Source: an uncultured Solibacteraceae bacterium (lineage in GTDB: Bacteria; Acidobacteriota; Holophagae; Holophagales; Holophagaceae). From it: 64,000 nt of DNA. Below are positions 20,637 through 61,810 of the stretch, in pieces. Made by a program: the position numbers and the translations under genes. The notes under the pieces were generated by a model. The model was not told where the DNA came from and searched no databases. It was given only the letters and a program-made list of their open reading frames with translations. How positions within the stretch are numbered: position 1 is the first letter of the stretch; each line of letters begins with the position of its first letter. Where the stretch lies: the NCBI GenBank assembly GCA_964589695.1, contig CAZPUI010000001.1, positions 29,866-93,865 on the forward strand, read 5' to 3'.

Positions 20637-20683
20637 GGCTGGCCTCGACCGACACAGGGGCCGGTGTGGTCAGGATGGGTCGT

Positions 20684-20696: not shown

Positions 20697-20791
20697 ATTC
20701 TCTCCCCGCACAATGGCGGCCTGCAGGTGACAAGTGTCTTGAGTGCCTTCACGAGGGTCGTTATATGTTGGAAGTCACTGAGAGGAAACCC

Positions 20792-21511: not shown

Positions 21512-21578
21512 ACTTTCAACCGAGGCTGTCCCGCCGTTTCGTGGTTTCGAGGGGGCCTTGGAAATGAGATACCTCTCT

Positions 21579-23096: not shown

Positions 23097-23104
23097 GTCG
23101 CCAC

Positions 23105-24634: not shown

Positions 24635-24636
24635 GA

Positions 24637-43914: not shown

Positions 43915-44965
43915 GGGGCAGAACCGCTTCCGGATCAAGTGTTCTTGTATTGAGGGATGGAATAGGAACCTCCGCCCTGACAACAGGCGCAACGGGGGTC
44001 CGAATCGCGATGACAGGTAGGTTGTTGATGCATAGCTCGGGTCGGGTTTTTGGAGTGAACCTGTTAGCTAGGCTGGTTCGCAGATCCGACCAATTCCTTG
44101 CCCTAACCTCCCATCGTGCCCCTCGATTTTCGTAGTCTTCGCTGAGCTGATGCACGACGGCCTCTAGACCGGTGTCTCTATCGAAAACTATGACGCTCAG
44201 TAGGTGAGGGCCGAGAGCAACCACCATGCTCGTACCGCTGTACTCGCCTACCAGCATTGTTTCGAGCCGTGGTCTTTTCGGCAGGGAGACGACCGCGAAA
44301 CCAGTCTGTTGATGTTCTTCCTTATCTGCCTCGCTAGACGAAACGAGGCTTAGAGCGCGTTTTGATTCTCCGAGGTACCCCTGTTCCCGATGGCACAGGT
44401 GGAAGGCGACTAGCCACGGTCGGTCGACAATGACCCGGTCAAGGCCCCAGTGCTCAGGGATAGGAACGCCCGTCATGTACGCAAGCATTGCGTCGGACCA
44501 AGCTAGCACCGCCTGTTCAGTATTTTGGTAGCTCGTGACCATCGAAGGCGTGGCAATGAGCCGAGCGGCGAGGAGTCTTTGCGCCTTTTCGCGGTACACA
44601 ATGGTGAGTTCGGCCAGGACCTTTTCGATGGTTTCACCGCGGTGGAATGCCACGTTCAAGGGCATTCCCTTGGCAACGAAGTCAATTCGTTCAAGGAGGC
44701 CTTCAGGGCGAAGCATAGCGTCAACCTGCTCACCCACCGCCATCAAGTAGGCTTCGCCACCAGCAACGCCCGCTACGTAGGCCATGCAAGCCAGTTCGCG
44801 AGGTCGCGCCATCAGCACGTCAATACCGCCGCGGGTCCACTCGCCGGCACGTTTAGGGTCGAGCCCAAGGTGATTGGCCCATTCCGGGCCTACTTGCTCC
44901 CGCAGGAACTTGGCAAGGGTGACTGCGTGCGAGCGGATTTGGGTTTTGCGTCGTTCGTTGATCAT
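43898..44965 (-). CDS. Hypothetical protein (~355 aa)
   Basis: I chose start MINERRKTQIRSHAVTLAKFL... at 44965, 8 nt after the upstream small-ORF stop. The track's longer N-terminus looks non-coding. No domain recognised. Confidence 0.5.
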   Translation of the reverse strand: MINERRKTQIRSHAVTLAKFLREQVGPEWANHLGLDPKRAGEWTRGGIDVLMARPRELACMAYVAGVAGGEAYLMAVGEQVDAMLRPEGLLERIDFVAKGMPLNVAFHRGETIEKVLAELTIVYREKAQRLLAARLIATPSMVTSYQNTEQAVLAWSDAMLAYMTGVPIPEHWGLDRVIVDRPWLVAFHLCHREQGYLGESKRALSLVSSSEADKEEHQQTGFAVVSLPKRPRLETMLVGEYSGTSMVVALGPHLLSVIVFDRDTGLEAVVHQLSEDYENRGARWEVRARNWSDLRTSLANRFTPKTRPELCINNLPVIAIRTPVAPVVRAEVPIPSLNTRTLDPEAVLPHASMA

Positions 44966-44975
44966 TGTTCTATCT

Positions 44976-45188
44976 CTATGACTTAGGGACCTGCGTGTTG
45001 TTCGGTGATTGAATCGCCCCTGCTGTCGCACATGTGGGTGGCACCAGAATTGAGACGTTCGTCGCGTTGAACTGGTCACTATCACTGGGATACTTGATCG
45101 TCGTCGTCAGACTATTTGGATCACTACCAGCCGTTACATTTACCAGTTGATGCTCCAAAAACCTCGAAAAGAATGGCAATTCGGACAT
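44976..45188 (-). CDS. Small ORF (70 aa), Ser/Thr/Asn/Pro-rich, strong RBS
   Basis: AGGAGGAAA lies 4 nt upstream of ATG 45188. It sits directly downstream of the LytTR two-component cassette and directly upstream of 43898..44965. Confidence 0.45.
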   Translation of the reverse strand: MSELPFFSRFLEHQLVNVTAGSDPNSLTTTIKYPSDSDQFNATNVSILVPPTCATAGAIQSPNNTQVPKS

Positions 45189-45280
45189 CGCTTTCCTCCT
45201 GCTTCAAGGTGGGGCGACGCATAGGAGCACGTCAAGACACTCCAACGCCAGCGGTAGTTTTTCGGACGCGAACGGCTCTA

Positions 45281-46000
45281 TTACGATAATTCCTTTTTTG
45301 ATCCTAGGGCCGCCCTGACAATTGCTACTCGGCGTCGAGACACACGAACTGCCCTCGACCCAGAAAGGTTTATCATCATGACGTCCCCTGATAACTCGTA
45401 GCTCTCAACGGCTTCCACGCGGATTGCAGTATCGCGACCAGTTTGGACGAAGCCCTCTAAACGTTCCATGGCTTGAATGAGCGAATTCCAAGGGCCACGG
45501 TACATTGTGCCATGCACAAATGCCCAAATGACATTTCCTTCCCTTTCAAGGTGATCTATTTCGCAGGCTGAGATTATCTCAGAGAATGGTCTTCCATCCC
45601 GAGTTCGCTCCATCGTAACCTTGATTTTTGAATTCCTATTAGTATTCCTGATTGACTCGACAATACGGTGAATATCTTCCTGAAATATCGGTTTTTCCAG
45701 AACAGCGTAATAATTAAGTTTTATAACTGAATATGCGTGCTGCTTGAGAAAGGCAGTGACGATTACCACCGGAGGCATATGCGGAATATTTGCTAATGCC
45801 TCAGGTCCAGTTATTCCTGGCATTTGGAGGTCTGAAAAAATCACATCAACATCGCCGGAATGATGAATAAGAAATTTCCTAAAGTCACTACCAGACCAAA
45901 ATTCAGCGACTATTTGAACACCCTCATTTTCGAGAATATTTCGAAGATGTGCACGACTTGCTGGTAAATCTTCTGCTATGACAGCTCTTAGTTTTTTCAT
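45281..46000 (-). CDS. LytTR-family response regulator (REC + LytTR DNA-binding domain)
   Basis: The start MKKLRAVIAEDLP... is at 46000 (ATGA overlap with the kinase stop). The receiver Asp context is DVIFSDLQMPGITG. The C-terminal LytTR-like region reads ...IDHLEREGNVIWAFVHGTMYRGPWNSLIQAMERL...FVQTGRDTAIRVEAV. The gene is AT-rich. Confidence 0.8.
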   Translation of the reverse strand: MKKLRAVIAEDLPASRAHLRNILENEGVQIVAEFWSGSDFRKFLIHHSGDVDVIFSDLQMPGITGPEALANIPHMPPVVIVTAFLKQHAYSVIKLNYYAVLEKPIFQEDIHRIVESIRNTNRNSKIKVTMERTRDGRPFSEIISACEIDHLEREGNVIWAFVHGTMYRGPWNSLIQAMERLEGFVQTGRDTAIRVEAVESYELSGDVMMINLSGSRAVRVSRRRVAIVRAALGSKKELS

Positions 46001-47091
46001 GGTTTCACCGGAACTACTACACACGATACAGCTTTTGTGGCCTCGATATTTAACCAGAGATTGGCTGAGTTATTTTTATAGACGATGGAAAGCCGTTTCC
46101 GTAGATTTGCCAATCCAGTTCCCAATCGGGTACTTTCACTTTCTTGTAAATTTGGTGCAACTGAATTTTCAACTAAAAAAACAATCTTATCATCTTGTAT
46201 TTTGCCGTTCATTGTTATGACCCCATTCCCACCCAAGTTGGTAATACCATGCTTAATAGCGTTTTCAACTAAAGGCAAAATTACAAGGGGAAGAATTTCA
46301 AAGTCATCAATCCCTTCCCAGTTCCATTCAATTTGTATGCCACCTTCAAAACAGAGATTTTGGAATTGTATATATTGTTCGATTATTCGCCTTTCTTCTC
46401 TTACGGGGTGTTTTTTTACATCTGAAGTTTTCATTATATCACGAAGATGCATTGAAAGTAATTTCAGCGCTTCCTGAGTTCGTTTTTGACTAATTGAAGC
46501 GATTCCTGTGATGACATTTAAGGAGTTGAATAACGCATGCGGAGATAGTTGGTTTTTTAACAATTGTGACTGAATTGAGTTTGAAAATTGTCGAATGACA
46601 TTGGAATAATTTTTTGATGTTTCATAACTAGCAACAAAATAGGACAAAAGTAAACCAAATGGCAATCTTTCGGATATGAATCCAATAATATAGTATTTTA
46701 TCAAACCGGGTTTCCAAAAATCTCTATGTTGCGCAACATATACTGCAAAAAGGTCAATCATTAGCATTATACAGGATATTATAATTATTGGCTTTAGTAT
46801 GTTTTCGCGCCCATTCTTTCTCCATTCCATGTGCCACAAGCTAGGAAGAACGATAGTCATCAGCAGGGCACTGATGAAAGCAATAATATCACTAGTGTAA
46901 TCGCGGTACCAAGTTATCGAGTTTAAATTCTTAACGGATAATATTGCCGCCAGTATGCCAATCGTAACTGATGCGTTGAAAACCGCGAAACTATAGTACG
47001 TCCACCTCGTTAGGCGCTTCCCGATTTGATCCCAGCCCGGAGAAGCATCACGGTCAGATTCGGCCATTTCGTCTACATATCTGCTTTGCAT
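45997..47091 (-). CDS. LytS/YehU-type sensor histidine kinase (His_kinase PF06580-type H-box + HATPase_c)
   Basis: 364 aa. The N-terminal half has ~5-6 TM segments. The H-box is QLLKNQLSPHALFNSLNVI. The ATPase motifs are LVENAIKHGI and GTGLANLRKRL. The gene is strongly AT-rich compared with the backbone. Confidence 0.8.
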   Translation of the reverse strand: MQSRYVDEMAESDRDASPGWDQIGKRLTRWTYYSFAVFNASVTIGILAAILSVKNLNSITWYRDYTSDIIAFISALLMTIVLPSLWHMEWRKNGRENILKPIIIISCIMLMIDLFAVYVAQHRDFWKPGLIKYYIIGFISERLPFGLLLSYFVASYETSKNYSNVIRQFSNSIQSQLLKNQLSPHALFNSLNVITGIASISQKRTQEALKLLSMHLRDIMKTSDVKKHPVREERRIIEQYIQFQNLCFEGGIQIEWNWEGIDDFEILPLVILPLVENAIKHGITNLGGNGVITMNGKIQDDKIVFLVENSVAPNLQESESTRLGTGLANLRKRLSIVYKNNSANLWLNIEATKAVSCVVVPVKP

Positions 47092-47139
47092 GTTGCTCTC
47101 GATTTCTGCTAAAGTCCTATAAAACCCAGGAGGTTAGAA

Positions 47140-47514
47140 GTGGTTGAAATTATCCGTATTGGAGACGTTCTTGAGTTGGTGCTGACCCAAATTGCTGGAA
47201 GGCAAAACGGCTTCCTGCAGGCGGTGGTAATGGATGATTGGACCCGCCGGGCTGTGGCTACTGCAATAGTGTGTTGGGAAAGAAGTTGTCCCGAAGCGTT
47301 TCATACCCAACCGGGTGAATGGCCTGCAGGGAAGGTCATCCTGGAACAGTCCAATCTTGCACCAGTCGCAGCCATTAGTGATCTGACAAAAGCAGTAATT
47401 GAGCTCAAGGGTGATTCTCGAAGGACTGTAGTAATGTCTATTCTGGATCACCTTGACTCCCTCGACGCCCAAAGTCCGGTGGCGGCACTCCGTACTCCTG
47501 AAACAGTGCCGTGA
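47140..47514 (+). CDS. Hypothetical protein (124 aa), low confidence
   Basis: GTG 47140 follows AGGAGG (47129..47134 region). It overlaps the convergent HTH gene by 77 nt, and an antisense ORF (47134..47472) also exists. Coding status is unresolved. Confidence 0.35.
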   Translation: MVEIIRIGDVLELVLTQIAGRQNGFLQAVVMDDWTRRAVATAIVCWERSCPEAFHTQPGEWPAGKVILEQSNLAPVAAISDLTKAVIELKGDSRRTVVMSILDHLDSLDAQSPVAALRTPETVP

Positions 47515-47701
47515 TCATGAGTCTGGCGGTGGAGGCGGGAACCCTTTCTCCCTTTGCCCAGAAAGCTAGGTACCGCCTCGATACGCCTAAAGACTTGGCC
47601 AATTTCCCGACGCCCCGCATTCGTTGAGCCAGAGTAAGCCAAGGTTCAGGAAGTTTGATACTAGGAGCCATCTCCCAATGATAGGGATCTATGATCCCCA
47701 T
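47438..47701 (-). CDS. Small Cro/YdaS-like helix-turn-helix protein (~87 aa)
   Basis: I chose start MGIIDPYHW... at 47701, after AAGGAGA. The HTH reads LTLAQRMRGVGKLAKSLGVSRRYLAFWAKGERVPAS. Confidence 0.55.
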   Translation of the reverse strand: MGIIDPYHWEMAPSIKLPEPWLTLAQRMRGVGKLAKSLGVSRRYLAFWAKGERVPASTARLMITALFQEYGVPPPDFGRRGSQGDPE

Positions 47702-47745
47702 GCAAGTCTCCTTATGCTTCCGAACACCCAGGTCACATGCGCGGA

Positions 47746-47776
47746 CATGCGCGGAATCGCATGTCACCACATCGTT
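47746..47776. repeat. 31-nt direct repeat, copy A (preceded by a 10-nt tandem duplication CATGCGCGGA at 47736..47745)
   Basis: CATGCGCGGAATCGCATGTCACCACATCGTT. 28 of 31 positions are identical to copy B at 48502..48532. Confidence 0.8.
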
Positions 47777-47997
47777 AGTTTCACAGAACGAACCTTTCCA
47801 TCGGCGAATTTTGCGGCTGGGAAATCTCCTTTTGCTCCAATTGCAATTTCACGAATGCATTTCATAGCATTTGACACACGATTTCACCGATTGTTCTCTA
47901 TACAATAGCATTTTGTACACCGCCATAGCGAACATTCATTGTCGGAATTGCGGACTCCCTTACGATTTGGAGTCCCAGATGCAATGCTGACCCCAGG

Positions 47998-48327
47998 ATG
48001 GCCACCTACCACCCCGATGTGATCGCCGCCCTACAATCTTTTCAACAAACAGCACAAAGGCAATTTGGACCAAGTGCTGAAGCTGTTTCTATTACCGACG
48101 AAGACTTGATTGAACCCGATTCGTGGGCACGCAAGACGCTCATATTCGGAATCATTTTGACCGGAACCTTGGCCCTATGCCTCCTTTGGACTGATCTTTG
48201 GTCGGAAGCTCTTGTTAATACAGTAGTTGGCTCTCCTATGCCTCTTCTCGCGGCGACGCTGAGGTGGCTCCTGATCGCTCTATCAAGCCTGTTCTGCATC
48301 CGGGGCATTCTGCATCTCGCAACCTAG
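47998..48327 (+). CDS. Small membrane protein (109 aa)
   Basis: There are two or three hydrophobic segments (TLIFGIILTGTLALCLLW; PMPLLAATLRWLLIALSSLFCI). No domain recognised. Confidence 0.5.
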   Translation: MATYHPDVIAALQSFQQTAQRQFGPSAEAVSITDEDLIEPDSWARKTLIFGIILTGTLALCLLWTDLWSEALVNTVVGSPMPLLAATLRWLLIALSSLFCIRGILHLAT

Positions 48328-48634: not shown

Positions 48635-49777
48635 TCACATTCGACCCGCCAACTTCTGCCGATCCAGCCACTCCAAGCAAACCCTCGCCCTCGCTGCATC
48701 TACCTTGGCCTTGGCAAGCAGTTCATCCATTTCCTTCGCATCGCCACCCACTGAGCTCCCCCGGGCCGCTTCTAGCTTCTGGGCCTCGGCCTCCCCCGCC
48801 AGGTAGACCGTCAGTTCCTTCTGTTCCAGTGCAACGTATGCGTCAACCGCCTCGAGGGCCTCTCGCAAGCGATCCCCCCGTTGGAGCACCACTGTTTCAT
48901 TAGGCTGTCCTCCTCGGGTCTGGTAGGCGACGATACCCCCCAACACCACCAGGACTGATGCCGCGAGCAACCACCGAAGAGTCCCCTTCCCCACCGCTTT
49001 TGTGCCGATTTTCCCGACAGGCACCGGAGAGACTCCCACCCCCCTCTCCCGCCTACCTATTTCCTTCCGGACCTGGTCGTCCTCGGAGATTAGATCCCGG
49101 GGAATTTCATCCCCTTCATCCACGGCCATGCTCGGTATTCCAACCTCTTCCTGCGCCCGCACCACTGACATGGCAAGGTGCGCCTCGATTGCCATCCGGA
49201 GCGTCCGGACCTCTTCGCTCGACCTGGCCAACGCCTCCTTCAGCGGAGCGACCTCGGCCCTAATCCCTTCTCTCAGAATCTCCCGTGCTACTGCGAGGTC
49301 CTCCGGCCTCGCCACCGCCAGGTATCCCGGACTCGGTTCTGCCTCGGCTTCACGGAGGTCCGCCTCTGTCTCTTCCACGACTTCGGTCAGCGCTGCTGCG
49401 ATGTCTGAGCCGGGAGGTTCCACCATAACGTCATCTTGGTTCACATCCGCCAGGTCCGCCCCCCGCGCACGGCAGTCCTCGTCCAAAGCACGCGGTTCCT
49501 CCGCCCGAATCGTGCGCACGATAACTGCCTCGGCCTCCTGGATAGTTCGCGAGTACGGCTCGGTTGCCCTCGCCGGAACTGCTCCATCTCCCAGAAGACG
49601 CTTCAGGTCCTGGTCCGGATCCAACACCTCGACAGGTCCCCCCTGCCCTTCCTGCCGTTCCCTGCTTTCAGTGAACTTGGCGATGTCCTTCGCGATCTCC
49701 ACGCAAAACTCGTCCCGGTTTCTCTCCAGTTTTGTCTGAGCCGCCCTCAGTGAATCGCGAGTCTCTTCCGCCAGCAT
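48635..49777 (-). CDS. Acidic coiled-coil protein with one TM segment (380 aa), immediately downstream of the coupling-protein gene
   Basis: AGGAGG lies upstream of ATG 49777, which is 12 nt after the T4CP stop. The TM segment is TLRWLLAASVLVVLGGIVAY. The flanks are Glu/Asp/Arg/Ala-rich. Confidence 0.6.
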   Translation of the reverse strand: MLAEETRDSLRAAQTKLERNRDEFCVEIAKDIAKFTESRERQEGQGGPVEVLDPDQDLKRLLGDGAVPARATEPYSRTIQEAEAVIVRTIRAEEPRALDEDCRARGADLADVNQDDVMVEPPGSDIAAALTEVVEETEADLREAEAEPSPGYLAVARPEDLAVAREILREGIRAEVAPLKEALARSSEEVRTLRMAIEAHLAMSVVRAQEEVGIPSMAVDEGDEIPRDLISEDDQVRKEIGRRERGVGVSPVPVGKIGTKAVGKGTLRWLLAASVLVVLGGIVAYQTRGGQPNETVVLQRGDRLREALEAVDAYVALEQKELTVYLAGEAEAQKLEAARGSSVGGDAKEMDELLAKAKVDAARARVCLEWLDRQKLAGRM

Positions 49778-49789
49778 GGCCGCCTCCTG

Positions 49790-52700
49790 CTATCGGCTCG
49801 GATTGATAACCCGCATCTGCCAAAGCCTCACGGCCGGCAGCATGTAGAGGTCCTTCCCATTCCACTTCTTCCCCACCTTGGGCAGGCGGTGATTGGTGTG
49901 GCTCTCACTGTAGTTCCTAACTTCAGGTGAGGTAATCAGGAAGTCCGGCTTGCAGAGAATACGTCTCGGCGGCTTCGGCACTGCGCCATCCCAGGTACTG
50001 GCCACTGCGTGGAAGGCCGGGAGGAACACCAGTAGCGCTGGATCGACGAGATAGCGCTCCTCCTCCTTTACCGTCACTTGCACGCTCCCACCACCGGATT
50101 TCCCGCGGGCACCGAACTGGGCATCCTGGGCGGTCATCTGCTGGAAGCTCTGAGTCAGGTTTCGTTCGGTCACCTGTTGGCGACATTTCCCCCCAAGGAG
50201 ATCAGCACACTCCTCTGCCTCCTTGGTGTTGTTCAACTTCATGACGATCCGGTTGGGGAAATTGGTCAGGAGGTTGTCCGCCACCTTTTCTTCCATCATC
50301 GAGTAGATGGAACTCGGACCCTGCGTTGCTATCACGTTAATTGATTTGTTGGAGCGGGCAACGCTTGCGTATTTTGCATCACTTTCCCCCTCCAGGAAGA
50401 AATGGCACTCATCGATGATCAGCACGACGTACCGTTCCGTGTTTGGCATCTCCTCCAATGCGTCATTGACCGAGCGGATCTCGTCTGACAGCTGCGAGAT
50501 CTTGGCAAAAAGGCTCAAGGAGTCCCGGTAGGCCTCCTTTCCGAGGAAACCCAATTCCCGCTCCACGGCTGATGCCTGTGTGTCCAGGAAATCCTGCGCC
50601 GTCTGGGCGAACATGGTCGATACCGGCAGCACTATCCCAAGCGGCACCTCCGCAAGCATCCTTTCTGCCGCCTCGTGCATGGACGGATCGGTCAGCAGCC
50701 CCTCAAGACCGTACACCCCGAGGCCGCTCCAGATGTCGTACCGTCTTTCCCGGATCTGCCTTGCTGAATCTAACGCCCCGTGCACCTCGGCCTTGAACTG
50801 CTCGGCCTGTCTCCGCACCCACCCCCCGCCCTGCTTTGCCTCGCAGACAGCCTGGAGATCCTTCTCCGCCATCCCACGAGGAGTGCCGTCTTCACGCAGG
50901 GTCCACGCGGGCCAACCCGCCTTCTTAGCGTTCTGCGCCAGCAATCGGAGCATGTGGCCTGCCCAAAAGGTCTGCCGGATCACGCTGAAGGTGCCTCCAT
51001 CGCCAGCCCCCCCCTCAGCGCTTTTACACCCGGCGAGTCCCATGAAAAGAACCAGGCCCTTGTCCAGAATGTCAGGCCTGAAGCAGGTGCCAAGCAGCAG
51101 CTGGGCCCCTGTCCTCTTGTTGTCCGAGTTGTCCGCGTGCGAATAGAAGCCGTACATCGGCGACACCTGCGTCGTCTGGTGATCGCTGCTGGCTCCCACC
51201 CAAGGGCCCAGGGCCCTTTTCCAGATCAAACGCTCCTGCACCCGCTGTTTCAGGTCCTCTCGTTGGGCCTTCAACTGGTCGATCTTCAGGCGGCCATGCT
51301 CTGCACGAAGGCCCTTGTTGGAAGCTCGTTGCCCGTCCCTGAGCTGGACGTATTTCTGGAAGCTCCTGTTCACAAGCGCCATGACGATCTTGCTAACCCC
51401 CTGGTGCCGCTCCTCCGGAAGGGCCACCGTAACGATCTTCCCGTGCTGGAAGATCCATCCCCAGCCAGGAAAGCTGATATCCGCTTCGCGCTGCGGCGCG
51501 AAGCTCAGCTGATAACCAGGTGCCAGGAAGGCCTGCGTCACGACACTGATCGTCTGGATGATGTTGACCTTGGTTTCGCCCTTGTCAGCCCCCGCGGCCG
51601 TCCAGCTGCCGTAGTACCAGTTCTTGATGTTCTGGATGCTGACCACCTCTTCCGAAGTCGCTGCCCGCCTCCCCTTCCCGTTCAGGAGGTCCTCCAGACG
51701 CTTGATCACCAAAGCGAGTTCGTCAGGTTCGCCGATCAGCCGAGCCAGGATCGGGAAGGTTGTGTATCCGTAGAGGATCTTCGTCGCTGAAAGCAAATTG
51801 GTGATCAGTGCATTGCCAGCATTCTCCCAGAAGGGGTCTGGCTTCCCTCCTTTGTTCTGGGTTGCGAACACGGTCCGCACGAATGTCGCTGCCACGTTCA
51901 CAACATCAAGGCCAGGAAGGTGCATGGGATTGAACTGGAAAGGCCCATCACACCTATGCCCCGTGTTCGGAGCAACGTAGTTTCGGAAGCCCAGTAGGCC
52001 AGCGCATTGGTATTCCGCCAGCCCTTGAACGGCCTGGGAGAGCGCCAGGAAGCCTTGAGCGCGAGCCTCGATCCCCTTGTGGTCGTAGGCATCGAGGGCT
52101 ACCACAAGCCCAGACCAGAGCACCTGGGCCCACGCCGGGTCCCAGGCGCTGACGAGCGCCGGTGTCAGGACGTGCCCGTGGGGCCTCCCGATCCAGCACT
52201 GCCCTACCCCGCCCACACGCATCACCAGGCTATCGATCAGCAACTTGTCGTCTCCCCGAGGAATCCACTTCGAATTCACGAACCCAGGCGAGACTCCGAA
52301 CATGGCGGAGACCACCTCGCGCTCGTGCTCGTGCGCTTCCTCCATGGCCAACACGAGGTTCTGGATCTCCCGGTTCCGCCCTGCTTCCTGGCAGGCTTGG
52401 ATCACGGGTGAACCTTCCTCATGCAACCGAGCGACGAGGTGCTGAAGGGAAGCATCCATGCTCCATTTGCCGACAGCGTCGACAACGATGCCTCCCACCA
52501 TCGCGAACACTTCATCGATGGCTGCTGTAACGAGCCTCGTCTCGCTTGCAACTAGCCCGGAGATGAGGGCGTCCAGCTTTGCCTCCCGCCAACGGTTCCG
52601 GAGCCAGGTCACTACATCCCCACTCGGAAAGAGTTCGGGCATGGCTTGCACCTTTGGCGTTCCCTTGCCCGGCCCTATCCCGAACCCGCCATCACCCTGC

Positions 52701-54979
52701 GAGCCGTCGTGCTCGAACTGCAGGCGCGCAGCGTGTCCAGCCACGATCTCGCCCACGTGCTGCGGCCAGGTGAGCAGTAGGTCACTTCGAACGGTGGCTA
52801 AGAATTCCCCGATGATCTTCCCTGCCTCGAATCGTTCAGGCCGTGCCCCCGCAAGCCCGACGGCATTCAGAATCCTCGCGCTGCTTTCTGTCCACGCCAC
52901 ACTCTCCGCTCCCAGGAGTTTGCACTCCCCCAGCAGCTCGCCAATCTGCCTGGCGATGCCCTCCGCCAGAAGCTCCTCAATTGCCCGGCATCTGTCCGCC
53001 CCTTCAACCAGCGCAACGATCGGGTCGGGTTCGGCATACGAAGTCCCCATCTTTGCCTGGACTTCAAGGGACTTTGGTCTTGGTTCAGGATCAGTGGATT
53101 TCAGGACTGTGAACTTCCGGAAAGCACCATGCCGAATGTCAGTGGCAACATCAGCATCAGCGAAGGCTGCGAGGCTCTCCAGAAGGGACCGTACTTCCCC
53201 ATGAATCTGCGGCTGGAATGTCTCGCGTTCATCCCCCAGGAGGGAACCTTCGCCAATAGCTTCCTTCAGGGGTGTCGAAGCCACTTTCAACCAGCGCGTG
53301 AGGGCGATGATGAGTGGTCGCCATTCCTTGAGGTGCCCGAGCACGGTCCCAGCATGATTGATGGCCGTGGCCAGATGCCACATGTCCTGTATCAGGATCC
53401 GTCCGGTGCGGTTGATTCGGGCCTCGCGCAGCAGGAGACGGTGACGGTATTGGGCAACGGGTTCCCCCGGCCGGTTCTTAGTGGGAGCCATGTCCCGAAC
53501 CATCTGACGAAGTTCGGCAAATTCCTCCAGCTCGTTGCGCTTCACGCCTGCAGTTTCCGGCCCCATGGGTCTCGGAGATCCAGGCGTACCGACCATCTGC
53601 TTGAAGGCTTCCCCTGGCGGTACTCCATCTGAGTGTATTTCGCTTGGCACACCCTTCACATCAATGCCTGTCCCGTACCGGCCGTCTCCCGCGACGAACA
53701 ACCGACCCACGACGCGCAACACGGCTGCGGCCAGGTTCCTCGCAACTTCGGTGTAGGCCATAGCAACCTCGGCGCTTTCCCCACCTCCTGCCTGCTGGGA
53801 CGACCGGGACACCTTGACCGCTTTTGTGAGCGCATCGAGCCTGAAATCCCCATTCGCTCCGAACAACTTGATCCCATTACCCATGCCTTCGTTGGCGCGG
53901 CGCTCCTGACCTGGGTTTTCGGGAGCTTCCATCATGGCCCGAGCTGCCTGTCGCACCCGATCATGCGTGGCAAGAATCCTCTCGACCCGCACCTCGTCGT
54001 AACCCAATTCGAGCAGGTCGTTCTCCCGCCCGATGAAGGGCTTTCCCGAAGCAAGGAACTTCTGAAGCATCGGCGATGCTTTCCGAGCATGGGGCCCCTG
54101 GGAGGGCACTCGACCACTCCGCTCCCAGAAGGGGTCAACACCAGCGGAAAGCAGTGTCTCGCGCACATCGGGCGGTAGGGCTGCTTTCGGGTCCAGAACC
54201 AACCCTGCTACCTTCTCTACCCCCTTACCTTGAGGGTCGTAATCAATGTCCGCTTTCCAGCCGAACAACTGCCGCATTATCGGCTTCAGGACAGCTGTTG
54301 TTTTTCCGCAGCCGGTCGTTCCAAAGCAGACCGTCCCTCCCGTGACCAAACCCTGGAAGGGGATGGAGTAGAACTTCGCCTCCTCACCGAGCTTCTGTCC
54401 CTCATTCTCGTAGTGCTCCCCCAGCACCACATCGATCTGCTGTTGGGTTGGGTCGAAGGGACAGGCTTCCTTGTAGTAGCAAAGGGCAGTCTCCTGAATA
54501 TCCGTGTCCTTGCACAGGACCGAGCGCGTCCACTCCTGGTACTGGAGCACCTGGAGCTCGCTGCGACTGACAGTCTGCCTCTCCTTCAATGAAACCATCC
54601 ACGCAACCGTGGCCGCGGCCTGGGCCCCCAGGAGGAGGAATCCATTCAGGGCCCCCGGGATCAGTTGCATGCTTCCGTCAACGCTTGAAAGACCACCGAG
54701 GAAGGCCTTGGTAACCGGCCCGGCCATGGCCGTCGCTCCGACCGTCATCAGACCCACCAACCCACCCGCCCCGAGGAGCGGATTCTTGTGGGGCTTGTGC
54801 CGCTCCAGGTAGACCGTGGCCTTCTGGAAATTCCGCATCTTCCGGAAGGCTTCTTTCTGGGGACGCGTCCACTTCTTGGACCTGCGTTTGTGGTCCGCGA
54901 TTTCGAGTGGCGACGGCCGCAGGCTCGCAGGATAAAAGCTACGGATCTCGATCGGATTCTCAGTCGACTTCTTCTTCAC
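49790..54979 (-). CDS. virD4: Giant VirD4/TraG-family type IV coupling protein (1729 aa) with a ~740-aa insertion in the nucleotide-binding domain
   Basis: The N-terminus has two TM segments (LLGAGGLVGLMTVGATAMAG; LNGFLLLGAQAAATVAWMVSL). Walker A is FGTTGCGKTTAV (aa ~219-230, nt ~54290-54325), followed by LVLDPKAAL. Only at aa ~1000-1050 come the T4CP-typical FQFNPMHLP...GKPDPFWENAGNALITNLL. Walker B is VVLIIDECHFF (aa ~1518-1528, nt ~50400-50430). The C-terminal NVIATQGPSSI...FPNRIVMKLNN...AEECADLLG follows. The start is GTG. Confidence 0.8.
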   Translation of the reverse strand: MKKKSTENPIEIRSFYPASLRPSPLEIADHKRRSKKWTRPQKEAFRKMRNFQKATVYLERHKPHKNPLLGAGGLVGLMTVGATAMAGPVTKAFLGGLSSVDGSMQLIPGALNGFLLLGAQAAATVAWMVSLKERQTVSRSELQVLQYQEWTRSVLCKDTDIQETALCYYKEACPFDPTQQQIDVVLGEHYENEGQKLGEEAKFYSIPFQGLVTGGTVCFGTTGCGKTTAVLKPIMRQLFGWKADIDYDPQGKGVEKVAGLVLDPKAALPPDVRETLLSAGVDPFWERSGRVPSQGPHARKASPMLQKFLASGKPFIGRENDLLELGYDEVRVERILATHDRVRQAARAMMEAPENPGQERRANEGMGNGIKLFGANGDFRLDALTKAVKVSRSSQQAGGGESAEVAMAYTEVARNLAAAVLRVVGRLFVAGDGRYGTGIDVKGVPSEIHSDGVPPGEAFKQMVGTPGSPRPMGPETAGVKRNELEEFAELRQMVRDMAPTKNRPGEPVAQYRHRLLLREARINRTGRILIQDMWHLATAINHAGTVLGHLKEWRPLIIALTRWLKVASTPLKEAIGEGSLLGDERETFQPQIHGEVRSLLESLAAFADADVATDIRHGAFRKFTVLKSTDPEPRPKSLEVQAKMGTSYAEPDPIVALVEGADRCRAIEELLAEGIARQIGELLGECKLLGAESVAWTESSARILNAVGLAGARPERFEAGKIIGEFLATVRSDLLLTWPQHVGEIVAGHAARLQFEHDGSQGDGGFGIGPGKGTPKVQAMPELFPSGDVVTWLRNRWREAKLDALISGLVASETRLVTAAIDEVFAMVGGIVVDAVGKWSMDASLQHLVARLHEEGSPVIQACQEAGRNREIQNLVLAMEEAHEHEREVVSAMFGVSPGFVNSKWIPRGDDKLLIDSLVMRVGGVGQCWIGRPHGHVLTPALVSAWDPAWAQVLWSGLVVALDAYDHKGIEARAQGFLALSQAVQGLAEYQCAGLLGFRNYVAPNTGHRCDGPFQFNPMHLPGLDVVNVAATFVRTVFATQNKGGKPDPFWENAGNALITNLLSATKILYGYTTFPILARLIGEPDELALVIKRLEDLLNGKGRRAATSEEVVSIQNIKNWYYGSWTAAGADKGETKVNIIQTISVVTQAFLAPGYQLSFAPQREADISFPGWGWIFQHGKIVTVALPEERHQGVSKIVMALVNRSFQKYVQLRDGQRASNKGLRAEHGRLKIDQLKAQREDLKQRVQERLIWKRALGPWVGASSDHQTTQVSPMYGFYSHADNSDNKRTGAQLLLGTCFRPDILDKGLVLFMGLAGCKSAEGGAGDGGTFSVIRQTFWAGHMLRLLAQNAKKAGWPAWTLREDGTPRGMAEKDLQAVCEAKQGGGWVRRQAEQFKAEVHGALDSARQIRERRYDIWSGLGVYGLEGLLTDPSMHEAAERMLAEVPLGIVLPVSTMFAQTAQDFLDTQASAVERELGFLGKEAYRDSLSLFAKISQLSDEIRSVNDALEEMPNTERYVVLIIDECHFFLEGESDAKYASVARSNKSINVIATQGPSSIYSMMEEKVADNLLTNFPNRIVMKLNNTKEAEECADLLGGKCRQQVTERNLTQSFQQMTAQDAQFGARGKSGGGSVQVTVKEEERYLVDPALLVFLPAFHAVASTWDGAVPKPPRRILCKPDFLITSPEVRNYSESHTNHRLPKVGKKWNGKDLYMLPAVRLWQMRVINPSR

Positions 54980-55014: not shown

Positions 55015-55344
55015 CTATTCAGCGGCCGATCCTGCCCGCCCAGGTGTCTTGCCGAAGCTGAAGATTCTCGCCTTTGCCTCTTCGACTTTTTCGGCAGGTA
55101 ATTTGGCAAGAGCCTGGCGGTCTCGGGCATTGAGAAACCCGTCGAGCACAAGCCCGAAAACGTCGGTCCAAGCCACCTCCGAATTGCCCTCTGCCGAGAC
55201 GGCCACGACCCTCGCGAAAAGATCCGCCGTTTCCGCCTTCAAGGGGGCCTTCTTGAAGAAGACATTCTGCTTGCTGAGACGGAGGCTCCCGGCCCTCTGC
55301 CTGAGGCTCTGCAGGTTGCTCTGTGTGGTGGTTTTGTTGTCCAT
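55015..55344 (-). CDS. Small hypothetical protein (109 aa) upstream of the coupling-protein gene
   Basis: ORF with plausible composition. It occupies the position of a relaxosome accessory gene, but no motif is recognised. Confidence 0.5.
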   Translation of the reverse strand: MDNKTTTQSNLQSLRQRAGSLRLSKQNVFFKKAPLKAETADLFARVVAVSAEGNSEVAWTDVFGLVLDGFLNARDRQALAKLPAEKVEEAKARIFSFGKTPGRAGSAAE

Positions 55345-55435: not shown

Positions 55436-56632
55436 TTATGTCGCTAGATTGCTCAGGGTGTGCTTGAAATTGCTGATTTCGCCCGCGAGCTGGTCACATT
55501 CTCGGCTGCATATCGCCACATAATTCGGATCTGCTAGGGTCTGTGCGAATTCAAGTCGCGCCTTTGCTGCTGTTAAATCGTCCTTGAGCTGCCGTAAGCT
55601 AACTTTGGATGGTCCACCTAAAGGTCCGTCCAAGATCTCCGTGCGTTCTCTCCTGGGTTCATTTTGGTTTTCACACCGGTTCTTCGGTTCTTGCATGGTC
55701 TCGGCTTGGTTTCCTCGGGATGTCCCCACTGTCTCTCCTGAGGCTCGCTGGTCATTTTCTGGCGCTTCTCCGGTCACACTGCGGTCTTTGCTTTGGTTTG
55801 CTGTCGCAAGACCAAAATCGGCCCAATTTCCAGGAAAAACCCTGCCAGGCTGGAATGGACTAAATCGTTTGAAGTAGCGCGATCCCCTTAGTTTAGATCT
55901 CATGTGTTCTTGGAAGTCCGTCGTCCAGGAACTGATGGCTTGCCATGAACTTGGTTCGGGAATTCCACATGAAAATGGATCATTTTCCGGGCAGTGCAAG
56001 CGAACTGAACGCACAGAGCTGAAACCACCAGTTGACCATTCGGCAGTCAGGCTCCGCTCCACCATTTCCCCGATTACATCGCTCCAGACGACGTGAAACC
56101 CCTTACCTATTCCATGGAGTACGACGCGCCAATCCCCACCGGATGAGACCACATCATCGAGCAAATCCCCATGTCTCCTGAGCATCAATTCCATTTCCTG
56201 CGAATAGGCGATGATGTGGATGACTCGAAAGGCCAGTTCATCGATTACAAGAACGCCGCCCACCGGAAAGTCCTCGGGGTAATCCTCCAGGAATCGATCA
56301 CCAGGAAGGTACATTTGGGTCCTTTTCGCTCCTCCGTCATTACCCAAAGGGGCCACCAACCCCATAACTTCCAGAACAGGGATTTCCCTCTGCCGTACAG
56401 GTGTCGTGAGCTTCGGCATCCGAGCAGCCAATTCACCTGCATTCACATCGGAGGCGATACGCCTTCTCGCGCGCAGGGCTGCTTTCCTGCCGACATTTTG
56501 GTGCGGTGACGGCCCTCGCGCGAATAGATCTTCAAGCCAAAGCGGGGCTCCCGAGTGGCTGAGCAGAAACCGATCAAGTTTATATGTTCCAAAGATCTGA
56601 GAAGTAGTTTGTTCACCGCCCGACAAATACAT
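55436..56632 (-). CDS. Hypothetical protein (398 aa)
   Basis: Long ORF with protein-like composition. The C-terminus has a Gln/Glu/Arg/Asn-rich linker and a coiled-coil. No HUH or other relaxase motif seen. Confidence 0.55.
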   Translation of the reverse strand: MYLSGGEQTTSQIFGTYKLDRFLLSHSGAPLWLEDLFARGPSPHQNVGRKAALRARRRIASDVNAGELAARMPKLTTPVRQREIPVLEVMGLVAPLGNDGGAKRTQMYLPGDRFLEDYPEDFPVGGVLVIDELAFRVIHIIAYSQEMELMLRRHGDLLDDVVSSGGDWRVVLHGIGKGFHVVWSDVIGEMVERSLTAEWSTGGFSSVRSVRLHCPENDPFSCGIPEPSSWQAISSWTTDFQEHMRSKLRGSRYFKRFSPFQPGRVFPGNWADFGLATANQSKDRSVTGEAPENDQRASGETVGTSRGNQAETMQEPKNRCENQNEPRRERTEILDGPLGGPSKVSLRQLKDDLTAAKARLEFAQTLADPNYVAICSRECDQLAGEISNFKHTLSNLAT

Positions 56633-57794
56633 CTCCCCCCCTCATTCCCCTATTTCCTCGGTGACTGAACACACGCCTGATGTACCCGGCCGCTGCCTTT
56701 GCCCGCACGCCTGCAGGCTTGTAGGAATGCCCGAGTCCGACGACTTCAACCTCTTGCCTGATCTTGTACTTCTCCGGACCAAAGTCGGAGGCGATTGAGA
56801 TATCTGGGAAGGTTGCGAGTTCTGGCGACTCGGACCGAATCTGGTCCTCCAATTTGATGGACTTGATGCTTGCCCCCATGGCTTCGTTCTCGTGCATGAA
56901 GAACACGACAGCATCGCCCACCACCTGCTCGTGAAACTCGCGGTTTTGAGGCTTCAGATTCCTTGGTCCACCACCCGATCCGATCAATCGTGGATCAGCC
57001 TCCCTCGCAGCCTTCCACCCCTTCTTCGTGAGGCTGAAACCCTCCAGAACCCCTGCTCCGATGGGAATAGGTTCGTAGGCTAGGAACCCCTCGTCTCTCA
57101 GACGATCCACCTTCAGGATGATCGATAATCCTGCCTCAGGTTCTAGGGCGATCAGTTGCTCCATCGAGGGCCTTCGGAGCCAACCGGACCATGCCAGGAG
57201 ATCACCATCTTCCATGCGCGTTCTGCTGTCGCCGAGCAGCGCAAGGGCGCGGTCGATGATCGAGGAATCTCCCTTCCTTGAGGGGTGCAAATACACCCCC
57301 AGGTGTTCCAGAACATGGCCCCTCATCAGCAGGTCCAATGCGGTGTATCGGCGAGCGAGAAACTCCAACCGCTTGTCCAGGGAATCCACTGGTCCGACCG
57401 AAAGAGGATGAGATGTTCCAAACACCCTCGGATCGAGCCCTTCGATTACCACGCGACCCGCATCCGTAAGGTTCCTTGGGCGGTATTCTTCTGCCAACCA
57501 CCGACCTCTCTTTGGCCAGATTTCAGGCGTATACAGAGCCTTGGTTCCCTGCTTTTTAGCCTCTGTTGGTGAAGCAGTTTCTGACCCAAAACGGTCGCTA
57601 GCCGCCTGGATTCCATCGGGCAGAAAGAGGCGATTCAGCGGTACACCCAGCAACCGCCGAGCATGGCGTTGCCCGTCACCCAATTCCGCATGTCCCTGGT
57701 GGTCCTGGAAGAACTCCCGGTGGACTGGACGTGTCCGATCCACTGTCGGATATGGCCCCCGTTCCAGGTCTAGCATCGGTCGGTTTTCGCTCAT
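56613..57794 (-). CDS. Hypothetical protein (~393 aa)
   Basis: I chose start MSENRPMLDLERGPYP... at 57794 (ATGA overlap with the upstream stop at 57791). No motif recognised with confidence. Confidence 0.55.
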   Translation of the reverse strand: MSENRPMLDLERGPYPTVDRTRPVHREFFQDHQGHAELGDGQRHARRLLGVPLNRLFLPDGIQAASDRFGSETASPTEAKKQGTKALYTPEIWPKRGRWLAEEYRPRNLTDAGRVVIEGLDPRVFGTSHPLSVGPVDSLDKRLEFLARRYTALDLLMRGHVLEHLGVYLHPSRKGDSSIIDRALALLGDSRTRMEDGDLLAWSGWLRRPSMEQLIALEPEAGLSIILKVDRLRDEGFLAYEPIPIGAGVLEGFSLTKKGWKAAREADPRLIGSGGGPRNLKPQNREFHEQVVGDAVVFFMHENEAMGASIKSIKLEDQIRSESPELATFPDISIASDFGPEKYKIRQEVEVVGLGHSYKPAGVRAKAAAGYIRRVFSHRGNRGMRGGDVFVGR

Positions 57795-58072
57795 GGCCGC
57801 AACCCTCGGGCCATACGCTCCGCCTCGTCCCCTACCCTCTTCCCACTGCCATTCCCGAAGGCCATGGCCAGGCTGATCGGCAGAGACAGCAACCCAGCAC
57901 AAAGGATGATTGGTAGCAGCCCGTTTTCCTGTAGCAGTGGCTCCATTAGGTCCCACTGTTTCCTGAAGACAAACCAGAATTCGAACCCGACAATTCCCAG
58001 GCCCAGAAGGAACCCGAGAAGCATGTTGGTCGCGCGAGGATCCTTCTCTTTCGACCCAGCACCCTTAGCCAT
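57791..58072 (-). CDS. Small two-TM membrane protein (~93 aa)
   Basis: I chose start MAKGAGSKEKD... at 58072, an 8-nt overlap with the HU-like gene end. The TM segments are MLLGFLLGLGIVGFEFWFVF and LLPIILCAGLLSLPISLAMAF. Confidence 0.5.
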   Translation of the reverse strand: MAKGAGSKEKDPRATNMLLGFLLGLGIVGFEFWFVFRKQWDLMEPLLQENGLLPIILCAGLLSLPISLAMAFGNGSGKRVGDEAERMARGLRP

Positions 58073-59295: not shown

Positions 59296-59425
59296 TTGCT
59301 TCCTTGCTTGCTGTCTTGCCCTCTTTCTTGGTTTTCTCATATCTTTGTTTCTTCCTTTTCCCTTTGGTGCTTTCCTGTCTTCGTTTTTTCATCTTTTGTT
59401 CCCTTTCGTTTTTCCTTGTTCATGG
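59296..59425 (+). other. Strongly strand-asymmetric pyrimidine (C/T) tract, ~130 nt
   Basis: The + strand is ...ttgcttccttgcttgctgtcttgccctctttcttggttttctcatatctttgtttcttccttttccctttggtgctttcctgtcttcgttttttcatcttttgttccctttcgtttttccttgtt..., almost devoid of A on the + strand. The ORFs drawn through it (59279.., 59296.., 59304..) translate to Phe/Leu/Ser/Cys strings. Confidence 0.75.
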
Positions 59426-59474
59426 GTTGTGCTGTATGCTTACTCGGTGGTTTGCACCCTTGGGAGATCCCTCC

Positions 59475-60713
59475 ATGCCTTCTTCTCACTTTGTCGTTGT
59501 GCCTCCCTCTAACCAAAGTGATATGCCAAGTATCCACTGGCGGGTGGTGGATGGATCCCTTCCTCTCAATCGCGTACTAGTTATCGGCAGTCCGAAGGGT
59601 GGGAGTGGGAAGACCTCGCTCACCACCTTTGCTGCCAGCGAACTGGCTCGGCTAGGGGCTAGAGTGCTCCTCGTCGAGGCCACCGAGGGGCAAGCTCCAC
59701 TGACCCAAGCGTTCGCCTTTGCCGACGCATACTCAGAGCTCGGCACAGGGCTTGGATTACACCTTCAGCGCATCATTGGCTATCCAAAGGACGGGGAAAC
59801 CTATTCCCAGACCCTGGCGCGGCTTAGAGGAATGGCGAGCATAGAAGCTGGCCAGGCCTGTGGCTCCATACGACGAGTCAGCGTATCGCCAGTAAACCCA
59901 ACCTTGGGCTTCGACTTCCTGCCATGTGGGGAATCCAATCTGGCCGAGGTGGCGTCCAGTTCGAAGATGGCCCAGCGCCCCATTCGCCGGGCAATGTTCG
60001 CCGCATTCCTCGAAACCCTCGCACAGGCTCGTGGTGGCGGCTGGGACTTCATTCTCATTGACGTGCTCCCGTCAGCGGAGTCCCCGATTGTGAAGGGGGC
60101 CATGGGTGTAGCCGACGCGTACGCACTCGTGGTTGACACGAAGTCCGCTCAGCCTCTACCAGGCTGGGGCGTGCTCATGGAAGAAATCATGCGAATCCAG
60201 CAGGCCCGAGAAGAGGAGGGCAAAGCACCCGACATATTCAAGGGGATCATACTGAACAAGGTCAACCTATCCAGGTCGAACTTCACCCAGAAAATCAACA
60301 ACTTGAAGATCCGAGTCAAGCAGCATGAGGCAGCTGCTGAAGGTGTGGATGTCCCGGTTCTAGCTCAGATCAGGGAGCTCACCAGCCTGGCTCTTCTTGG
60401 CTTCAACGTCCATGCGGTCGCACAACTTGCAGCAGCTTACGGTGGGCGGATCCCCGAGGATCTTGACAGCCTCACCGACGATGATGTCCATCGTCTCGTT
60501 CTGTTTGAGAAAGGTCTCTCCGCAGAAGGGAATCCACTGCCGGTGGCTGCTGGTATCGAGTGGCTGGCCAGTCTCCTTCCAGGCTCCCGCAAAACCCTGA
60601 TGCTCGAAGCCCAACTGCTCCACCCCATGCTCCTCGAACTGGCAGGAGACGCAGCTGCTGTCGAGGCCCTACGTGGATACTTTGCAGTCGTGAGCCAATC
60701 CGACGCCGACTGA
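59475..60713 (+). CDS. parA: ParA/MinD-family partition ATPase (large, ~412 aa, with a C-terminal extension)
   Basis: I chose start MPSSHFVVVPP... at 59475, after GGGAGA. The deviant Walker A is VIGSPKGGSGKTSLT. Walker A' reads VLLVEAT and Walker B reads FILIDVLPS. Confidence 0.8.
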   Translation: MPSSHFVVVPPSNQSDMPSIHWRVVDGSLPLNRVLVIGSPKGGSGKTSLTTFAASELARLGARVLLVEATEGQAPLTQAFAFADAYSELGTGLGLHLQRIIGYPKDGETYSQTLARLRGMASIEAGQACGSIRRVSVSPVNPTLGFDFLPCGESNLAEVASSSKMAQRPIRRAMFAAFLETLAQARGGGWDFILIDVLPSAESPIVKGAMGVADAYALVVDTKSAQPLPGWGVLMEEIMRIQQAREEEGKAPDIFKGIILNKVNLSRSNFTQKINNLKIRVKQHEAAAEGVDVPVLAQIRELTSLALLGFNVHAVAQLAAAYGGRIPEDLDSLTDDDVHRLVLFEKGLSAEGNPLPVAAGIEWLASLLPGSRKTLMLEAQLLHPMLLELAGDAAAVEALRGYFAVVSQSDAD

Positions 60714-61383: not shown

Positions 61384-61810
61384 TCTGCGAGCGCACCCAG
61401 TCAGAGACGAGCGCCGTAATGGTCGATCCCCTTCTGGCAGCCAGGTGTCTCAGTGGCTGCACGATGTTCCATAGATTCCAGGATTCCTGAAGAATTTGTT
61501 GGGATGAGATTCCCAGCTCAAAAGCATTTTCTTTCAAAGTCCTGTGATCCTGCTCTTGCATTCGGAAGATAACGCCAACTGGTTTTTTCTTAGCCTGGTT
61601 TAATTTAGAAGTGTTTTCAATGGTTCTTTGGACCAATTGAGATACGATATTTGGGTTTTTTAATGGATCATATTCCTCACTGTTGAAAGTTGTTTCGGTA
61701 TCATCTGCTCCAACAACACCCTGCATGCTCGCGAGCAGGGCTTTGATGGATTCTGGATCTGATACTGGATCCTTGAGGCTTTGTTTTGGTTTTCTATTCG
61801 ACGCAGCCAA
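61376..61810 (-). CDS. Putative ribbon-helix-helix centromere-binding protein (partner of the ParA at 61794..62483)
   Basis: 144 aa. The start overlaps the parA stop by 17 nt. KKPVGVIFRMQEQDHRTLKENAFELGISSQQILQES fits an RHH beta-alpha-alpha pattern. Confidence 0.5.
   Translation of the reverse strand: MAASNRKPKQSLKDPVSDPESIKALLASMQGVVGADDTETTFNSEEYDPLKNPNIVSQLVQRTIENTSKLNQAKKKPVGVIFRMQEQDHRTLKENAFELGISSQQILQESWNLWNIVQPLRHLAARRGSTITALVSDWVRSQIK

Follow-up and report, generated by a model that had tools for sequence, protein, structure and literature searches.

The gene considered here encodes an exceptionally large type IV coupling protein (T4CP) and lies in a 64,000-nucleotide (nt) stretch of DNA, referred to below as the window, from an uncultured Solibacteraceae bacterium (GenBank assembly GCA_964589695.1, contig CAZPUI010000001.1, positions 29,866 to 93,865 of the forward strand). 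The complete gene occupies 49790..54979 on the minus strand of the window, with a GTG start codon at 54979 and the stop codon at 49790-49792, and its product of 1729 amino acids (aa) aligns with the relatives described below from residue 1. A sequence-only reading of this DNA had taken the open reading frame (ORF) for a coupling protein of the VirD4/TraG type, and this is upheld by its motifs, by Pfam matches above threshold and by alignments to ordinary T4CPs. The protein is a VirD4-type coupling protein, oversized about threefold, and we are nearly certain that it is a genuine T4CP carrying two insertions in its nucleotide-binding domain (NBD).

All of the motifs quoted in that reading are found at the places it gave. 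They comprise GTTGCGKT at aa 220, LDPK at 262, FNP at 1016 and DPFWENAGNALITNLL at 1048, followed in the C-terminal part by IIDECH at 1521, ATQGPSS at 1551, IVMKLNN at 1578 and AEECADLLG at 1588. The Walker A motif (GxxGxGKT, G220-T227), the Walker B residues D1523 and E1524, and the TQ pair (T1552, Q1553) are invariant across 11 family members. Two Pfam models match above threshold, TraG-D_C at aa 1518-1650 with 34.8 bits (cut-off 22) and TrwB_AAD_bind at aa 1506-1665 with 33 bits (cut-off 20.5), the latter through the C-terminal half of its NBD model, and both matches are confined to the C-terminal half of the NBD of the protein. The VirD4-like CD1115 block of NCBIfam matches aa 1015-1065, and the T4CP equivalogs of the same database score far under their cut-offs, which is what a remote member would be expected to show. 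Close to the N-terminus, aa 67-87 and 111-132 are hydrophobic segments and putative transmembrane helices (by Kyte-Doolittle hydropathy only, with 19-residue windows scoring 1.4-1.64), and their positions are kept in the family alignment. The G+C (GC) content by codon position, lowest at the second position, keeps its pattern in every 100-codon window of the ORF, which indicates that the frame is coding throughout. Walker motifs, curated models, an all-alpha domain, the three-dimensional fold and co-encoding with a type IV secretion system (T4SS) are all positive for a VirD4-type T4CP, and on the basis of its sequence the protein is assigned the role of a membrane ATPase that would form hexamers and hand substrates to the T4SS.

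The domain map alternates between motor and insertion, all of it read from the minus strand. The N-terminal region (aa 1-184, 54428..54979) holds the two hydrophobic segments, at nt 54719-54781 and 54584-54649. It is followed by the first part of the NBD (aa 185-284, 54128..54427), with Walker A at nt 54299-54322 and the LDPK strand and helix at aa 262-283, which aligns to residues 101-185 of P0010, an ordinary T4CP of 614 aa. Insert 1 then spans aa ~285-996 (51992..54127), a length of ~710 aa, and is absent from ordinary T4CPs and present in all giant relatives. The canonical middle (aa 997-1207, 51359..51991) contains a strand with FNP (1016), the DPFWENA block (1048) and helices equivalent to the all-alpha domain; it aligns to residues 213-411 of P0010, marks the return of the chain to the NBD at 'FAPxxxxDISFPxW' and 'LVNRSFQKYVQLRD', and has 25% of its family columns invariant. 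Insert 2 (aa ~1208-1508, 50456..51358, ~300 aa) has no counterpart residues in P0010. The C-terminal part of the NBD (aa 1509-1729, 49793..50455) completes the protein, with Walker B at nt ~50402-50425, the ATQGPSS sensor motif (1551) and a family-specific tail.

These boundaries emerge from comparison with ordinary coupling proteins. An exhaustive HMMER scan of 1.84 billion representative proteins, with aa 200-1399 as the query, recovered ~70 ordinary T4CPs of ~500-960 aa (mostly 590-700) that match at aa ~200-288 and ~1010-1220 only. A phmmer alignment to P0010 pairs query residues 173-266 with 101-185, 1014-1201 with 213-411 and 1489-1610 with 410-535, so that at the first gap the ordinary protein has ~28 residues against ~750 in the giant one, and at the second it has none (411 to 410) against ~290 between residues 1201 and 1489. 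Walker A and Walker B thereby stand ~1300 residues apart in the giant T4CP compared with ~250 in ordinary ones. Alignment to the DotL profile gives the canonical layout of the first region as 'D-x-K-G, helix, G-R-e-e-D loop, strand, N-P', and both this profile and the family alignments locate insert 1 inside the G-R-e-e-D loop, between the DPK helix and the strand preceding FNP, with its entry ~20 residues ahead of the 'NP' motif, after which the all-alpha domain follows. Insert 2 is bounded by the helix 'LVNRSFQKYVQLRD' and by 'MPNTERYVVLIIDECH' and ends right before the Walker B strand. The sequence-only reading had described a motif-less sequence of ~740 aa splitting the NBD (51980-54170), which is confirmed and refined here to aa ~285-996 (nt 51992-54127). 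It had also called the whole ~470-aa stretch between DPFW and Walker B oversized; this was right as to ~300 aa, which form the second insertion, and not as to the ~190 residues at aa ~1014-1207, which are canonical and include the all-alpha domain. An extra 'DPFW' stands at the start of insert 1 (aa 282-285, 54133-54144), where relatives read DPV or DPI, and the idea that it is a duplicated motif was rejected in favour of coincidence on account of those readings.

The architecture is shared by ~10 distinct relatives in other assemblies, either intact or truncated by contig ends, of which the complete ones have 1706-1794 aa and the same order of blocks; the read-through, which had needed checking against a frameshift or a joining of separate genes, is accordingly real. 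The HMMER scan found the full-length P0002, P0004, P0005 and P0006 (1706-1792 aa), P0003, which is truncated at a contig end, and fragments. Eight further loci came from JGI metagenome contigs, which were scanned with a degenerate pattern based on the insert 1 alignment; three of them (L007, L008, L012) duplicate known proteins (P0002, P0005), and in all eight the ORF is uninterrupted (1716-1794 aa) or contig-truncated with the block order unchanged. JGI, ENA and Logan assemblies are the sources of the relatives' contigs. Searches of 72,556 sequenced plasmids (tblastn), of 185,579 GTDB species-representative genomes (contig scans) and of IMG/VR (one scan) yielded no relative, and the design is so far that of a small undescribed family present in metagenomes only. 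A word-indexed protein search, run with the whole protein and with the family alignment, returned only the query and one 208-aa fragment. It missed the ~1700-aa relatives found by the exhaustive scan even when their sequences were in the query alignment, and since it missed known relatives its negatives are not readable as absence for this family.

Within the family at least three clades can be distinguished, with 28-49% identity between them, and both insertions are retained in all members, at 712-821 aa for insert 1 and 263-303 aa for insert 2. Insert 1 is mildly acidic, with an isoelectric point of 5.7-7.4 that lies at ~6 in every member except one, and the values for insert 2 are basic throughout the family (8.7-9.5). 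Conservation in insert 1 is concentrated in islands at aa ~301-350, 476-525, 626-675 and 926-996, with a variable, fast-evolving middle at 676-925. There are 39 invariant residues in insert 1 and 10 in insert 2, none of them His or Cys, and for this reason neither insertion has an HUH, HD or zinc motif. The ratio of non-synonymous to synonymous substitution rates (dN/dS), estimated from three pairs of closer relatives, is 0.18-0.30 for insert 1 and 0.21-0.31 for insert 2, compared with 0.13-0.25 for the N-terminal and 0.07-0.14 for the C-terminal part of the NBD. By these values purifying selection acts on both insertions, although they change at a higher rate than the all-alpha segment and the C-terminal NBD.

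Structure prediction treated the motor and the first insertion separately. The motor was modelled with insert 1 excised, by joining aa 185-268 to aa 1012-1729, using an alignment of the giant proteins and 41 ordinary T4CPs. The first part of the NBD has a predicted local distance difference test score (pLDDT) of 78-96 and the segment equivalent to the all-alpha domain is helical at pLDDT >90; the predicted template modelling score (pTM) of the whole is 0.73. In a Foldseek search of the PDB the best match of this model is Cag-beta (8dol, 1.6e-5), followed by TrwB (1e9s/1e9r/1gki, from 3e-5), HerA and DotL (6sz9, 1.9e-2), with probabilities of 0.99-1.0, and a search of PDB sequences with the family profile places DotL best at 3.6e-8. 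The two halves of the NBD, whose reassembly the sequence-only reading had suggested as a check, do come together in this model (mean pLDDT 83.7), indicating that the motor sequence is able to fold with insert 1 removed. Insert 2, which is included in the model, is predicted to be helical and to open with a two-helix hairpin of ~32 and 33 residues at pLDDT ~90 (model residues 268-299 and 302-334), the rest of it lying at pLDDT 50-90. The AlphaFold2 model of insert 1 (aa 255-1020, from a family alignment of seven sequences) is almost wholly alpha-helical, with a mean pLDDT of 56 and a pTM of 0.59, and its better-scored stretches are at aa ~524-684 and ~934-1004.

Neither insertion could be linked to a described family. 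There is no Pfam or NCBIfam match at aa ~290-1000 or ~1210-1500, and insert 1 has no match in PHROGs. Against PDB sequences insert 1 finds nothing as a single sequence, and as a family profile only designed coiled coils at E >= 0.02. Its model returns nothing significant from Foldseek searches of the PDB (best E 0.088, TM <0.12) or of BFVD (best E 0.05). Several specific origins were tried and rejected. An internal duplication was dismissed because hhalign comparisons among the quarters of insert 1, the all-alpha domain and insert 2 all give probabilities <= 2% and a self-BLAST is empty, and a fusion of neighbouring genes because comparisons with the adjacent genes up1, up2, up3 and dn1 all give <= 0.2%. 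An intein was set aside given the missing conserved boundary Cys/Ser/Thr or His-Asn and an all-helical prediction, as opposed to the beta-rich Hint fold; the retention of insert 1 across the family at 28% identity was also counted against it. A relaxase domain of the HUH or HD type was likewise rejected for both insertions, which have no invariant His, no Pfam relaxase match and an all-helical prediction.

The giant gene is part of a five-gene order, up3-up2-up1-T4CP-dn1, that is kept in every relative locus for which the flanks are available, whereas the nearest ordinary T4CPs lie in ordinary T4SS clusters without these four neighbours. Immediately upstream, up1 (55015..55344, minus strand, 109 aa) ends 35 nt from the T4CP start and is followed outwards by up2 (55436..56632, minus, 398 aa), which overlaps up3 by 20 nt; both are syntenic and have neither a Pfam match nor any described relatives. 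On the other side dn1 (48635..49777, minus, 380 aa), also syntenic and without a Pfam match, starts 12 nt past the T4CP stop; its counterparts in the relatives overlap that stop by 14 nt. The protein has one hydrophobic helix and then a C-terminal region that is helical and, in the alignment, poor in gaps and prolines, and it is predicted to be a bitopic membrane protein.

The conserved gene three positions upstream of the T4CP, up3, is a 447-aa ORF (56613..57956, minus), and its true start probably lies further downstream. Among the 48 invariant columns of its alignment are HEQxVGD, HE, PD and (D/E)IEVxG. No direct Pfam match was obtained at E up to 5, nor any plasmid match by tblastn, and the PDB gave only non-significant matches to MarR. 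When its profile was compared with a Pfam-confirmed Replic_Relax fragment, hhalign gave a score of 31.0 (E 0.002, probability 14%) over 170 columns, in the region where the target fragment itself passes the Pfam Replic_Relax threshold, and 100 shuffles scored 14.8 +/- 2.6 with a maximum of 23.3 (z ~6). In PMC5357655 (Table 1) the family PF13814 (Replic_Relax) is equated with the MobC relaxase superfamily, and MOBC relaxases are related to PD-(D/E)XK nucleases and carry a winged helix (PMC12857230). From these profile comparisons up3 is possibly a relaxase, a weak but non-random candidate of a remote Replic_Relax/MOBC type with winged-helix and nuclease-like parts, and the element probably has a relaxase candidate of its own.

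The T4SS genes of the window are all on the minus strand, as is the T4CP gene. They encode VirB10/TrbI (11230-12276), VirB9/CagX (13383-14321), VirB8 (14348-15193), VirB4 (27711-30416, with ~24% identity to its best plasmid match) and a VirB11-type (T2SSE) ATPase (39463-40911). Lying among the T4SS ATPase genes is one for a DprA/Smf homologue (35420-36151, minus; DNA_processg_A, 2.7e-53), which is consistent with an element that handles single-stranded DNA. Two ParA-like proteins are encoded at 59304-60713 and 61794-62483. Most other ORFs of the window have no Pfam match, no Pfam relaxase was found in the ~57 larger ORFs tested within it, and judging by sequence similarity the whole element is very divergent. 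Between VirB8 and VirB4 (15276-27701, minus) are ~9 large ORFs (430-625 aa) that no Pfam model matches, a complement of unrecognised ORFs that is unusually large for a T4SS cluster; those at 15276-19050 are weakly paralogous (25-32% identity over 75-180 aa, E 1e-10 to 7e-7), and a similar relation links the ORFs at 21579-23096 and 26259-27701 (E 2e-4). At 44000-48000, in the interval that separates the VirB11 block from the T4CP operon, GC content falls to 0.44-0.52 from ~0.6 elsewhere, and this dip, which holds a pair of LytTR response regulator and His_kinase genes (45281-46024 and 45997-47091, minus) and ~1.5 kb with short ORFs only, may represent DNA inserted later, a regulatory region or one that contains an origin of transfer (oriT). 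At the left end of the window an AAA_5 (McrB/MoxR-like) ATPase (1125-2762, minus) and a Schlafen AlbA_2 protein (8100-9293, plus) may be defence-type cargo. Among the relative loci, an ankyrin-repeat gene lies near the giant T4CP of L001 (at 9645-10175). Genes for a C39-peptidase ABC exporter and an HlyD-like partner stand a few kb downstream of the giant T4CP in L002 (18596-23329) and L004 (17421-22202). Upstream there are LysM genes in L002-L004 and an HU-like gene in L004 only.

We consider it probable, taking the statement as a whole, that the protein is a T4CP whose two insertions serve as a built-in docking platform; for the docking role by itself, in which the insertions would receive the substrate or relaxosome, our confidence is more tentative and falls a little short of an even balance. 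The chain would leave the canonical motor twice, for a helical excursion of ~710 aa and then, before Walker B, for a basic helical excursion of ~300 aa, and the two would enlarge the cytoplasmic substrate-receptor face of the hexamer. The docked substrate would probably be a relaxosome built from the four co-conserved neighbours, with up3 as a remote MOBC/Replic_Relax relaxase, and the insertions would do in cis what is done in trans by DotM/N/Y/Z-IcmSW for DotL, by TraM for TraD and by CagF/CagZ for Cag-beta. A docking role is proposed because insert 1 enters near the all-alpha domain and its conserved islands flank a fast-evolving middle. In known T4CPs (TrwB, VirD4, DotL) the all-alpha domain faces the cytoplasm and recognises substrates (PMC7431656, PMC12857230). 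The contrast between islands and middle, the strictly conserved five-gene operon and the concept of the type IV coupling complex (PMC12857230) provide circumstantial support. Of the two functions that the sequence-only reading had offered for the insert, substrate recognition is plausible, on its sequence adjacency to the all-alpha domain, purifying selection and the analogy with the auxiliary complexes of T4CPs (PMC12857230). A relaxase-substituting insert was not supported, there being no invariant His or Cys, an all-helical prediction and no known fold or family, with up3 as a separate relaxase candidate. A more ambitious version, that the giant T4CP and its four neighbours constitute a previously unseen module for initiating DNA transfer, in which the insertions would fold into a receptor and adaptor domain with no known relative, replace auxiliary proteins and work with a highly divergent MOBC-like nuclease, appears unlikely.

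Several points weigh against the docking platform. The binding role is plausible but circumstantial, drawn as it is from position, purifying selection and an analogy with auxiliary complexes, and the link between up3 and Replic_Relax is weak in terms of the hhalign probability. No canonical relaxase was found among the ORFs tested in the 64-kb window. The insert 1 model, from only seven sequences, is of low confidence and gives no firm fold or placement on the hexamer, and the good fold of the motor model is to be expected, and is not independent proof, since ordinary T4CPs dominate its alignment. The insertions might instead be regulatory or architectural, as an autoinhibitory lid on the ATPase, a scaffold for oligomerisation or spacing, or a tether to the T4SS ATPases or to dn1. 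CagZ locks the Cag-beta ATPase, and it is this CagZ-regulated protein that is the top structural match; insert 2, moreover, opens with a long helical hairpin and directly precedes the Walker B strand, a position from which it could gate the active site, and the conserved membrane protein dn1, whose start overlaps the T4CP stop in relatives, suggests a stoichiometric partner. Some 1,000 residues are nevertheless large for a lid, and the fast-evolving middle of insert 1 better fits co-evolution with a partner or substrate than a fixed structure, so that we judge a regulatory or architectural role improbable. Less probable again is that the system is a protein-effector T4SS instead of a conjugative one, with the insertions as effector receptor. 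Known receptors of this kind are the all-alpha domain of Xanthomonas VirD4, which recognises XVIPCD signals, and, for Dot/Icm effectors, the DotL complex. The window, with many large unassigned ORFs inside its T4SS cluster and no Pfam relaxase in the set tested, would accommodate such a system, as would the ankyrin-repeat gene adjoining the T4CP of L001. Set against this, ParA and DprA, together with the HU-like and LysM genes of relatives, give a plasmid- or ICE-like context (ICE, integrative and conjugative element), up3 resembles a Replic_Relax/MOBC relaxase above the shuffle controls, and T4CP genes typically adjoin relaxase genes (PMC12857230).

Two further explanations concern what the inserted sequence is. 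Either insertion could be a fused DNA-processing enzyme such as a relaxase, primase, helicase or nuclease, for which one can point to the invariant clusters of insert 1 (G317, R318, D321, E324 and D328; R491, R495, Y511, R512, R518 and E519; P651, D652 and P653), to its one invariant Tyr and to the consistently basic character of insert 2. We nonetheless consider this very improbable: the missing invariant His and Cys leave no HUH, HD or zinc motif, the all-helical predictions lack the beta-sheet core of known relaxase, primase and helicase folds, no family match was obtained in Pfam, NCBIfam, PHROGs or the PDB, and a separate relaxase candidate stands next door in up3. That the long ORF is an assembly chimera or frameshift artefact, or the insertion a selfish element such as an intein, is suggested by unusual length alone and has a negligible likelihood in view of the uninterrupted orthologues of 1706-1794 aa with the same domain order in JGI, ENA and Logan assemblies, the coding GC pattern throughout and dN/dS values of <=0.31, along with boundaries that offer no Cys/Ser/Thr or His-Asn, the all-helical prediction and the lack of internal duplication.

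Compared with the VirD4/TrwB-type T4CPs (TrwB of R388, VirD4 and Cag-beta), the giant protein shares a putative two-helix N-terminal anchor, a RecA-like NBD with Walker A, Walker B and TQ motifs, blocks of the 'DxKG', 'NP' and 'DPFW' types, an all-alpha segment between NP and Walker B, a T4SS locus and a predicted fold like that of TrwB and Cag-beta. It differs from ordinary members in its 1729 aa against ~500-800, in its two lineage-specific helical NBD insertions and in being only 20-30% identical over the common parts. Topologically there is some analogy, and no more than analogy, with SMC/Rad50-type ATPases, where a P-loop head is split by hundreds of helical residues, and large helical insertions into P-loop ATPases have precedent. 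The Foldseek matches to the MukB coiled coil and to SbcC-like proteins are weak and non-significant, and no homology was detected: the giant head is of the FtsK/HerA/VirD4 type and not the ABC type, and the insertions are predicted multi-helix bundles and loops without a single antiparallel coiled coil, hinge or hook. Conceptually the protein is also like the DotL (IcmO) complex, a T4CP with a greatly enlarged substrate-receptor surface (PMC12857230). In the Legionella complex (DotL-DotM-DotN-DotY-DotZ-IcmSW-LvgA), however, enlargement comes from a C-terminal extension and separate auxiliary proteins, whereas here the extra mass, which has no detectable similarity to any Dot/Icm protein, is inside the NBD of one polypeptide. 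The F-like TraD has a C-terminal tail that binds TraM, and TraG is paired with TraJ, a separate membrane protein (PMC7431656, PMC12857230). These are likewise T4CPs that add relaxosome-recognition modules, and the giant T4CP is followed by dn1 as a conserved predicted bitopic protein, but the additions in TraD and TraG-TraJ are terminal tails or separate proteins and not internal, and no sequence similarity between them and the giant T4CP was found. No description of large or insert-bearing T4CPs was found in the searchable literature, which is a limited body in which absence is not proof. The protein departs from every characterised T4CP both in size and in having big insertions inside the NBD instead of tails or auxiliary subunits.

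Coupling proteins decide what T4SSs export, whether plasmids, ICEs or effectors, and their recognition of substrates is still poorly understood. The systems studied in most depth rely for it on the small all-alpha domain, on a terminal tail or on auxiliary proteins separate from the T4CP. The giant family shows that the NBD of a T4CP tolerates very large excursions, ~1,000 extra residues at two defined loops. For a T4SS specialist the surprise is an architecture and a partner operon that are unannotated apart from the weak MOBC-like signal of up3. In practical terms, length filters and domain-architecture rules used in annotation may miss or mis-split such genes, and the conserved operon is a marker for uncharted conjugative or T4SS elements known from metagenomes only. 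If the insertions are a receptor, the protein would be a natural single-chain 'coupling complex' for structural work.

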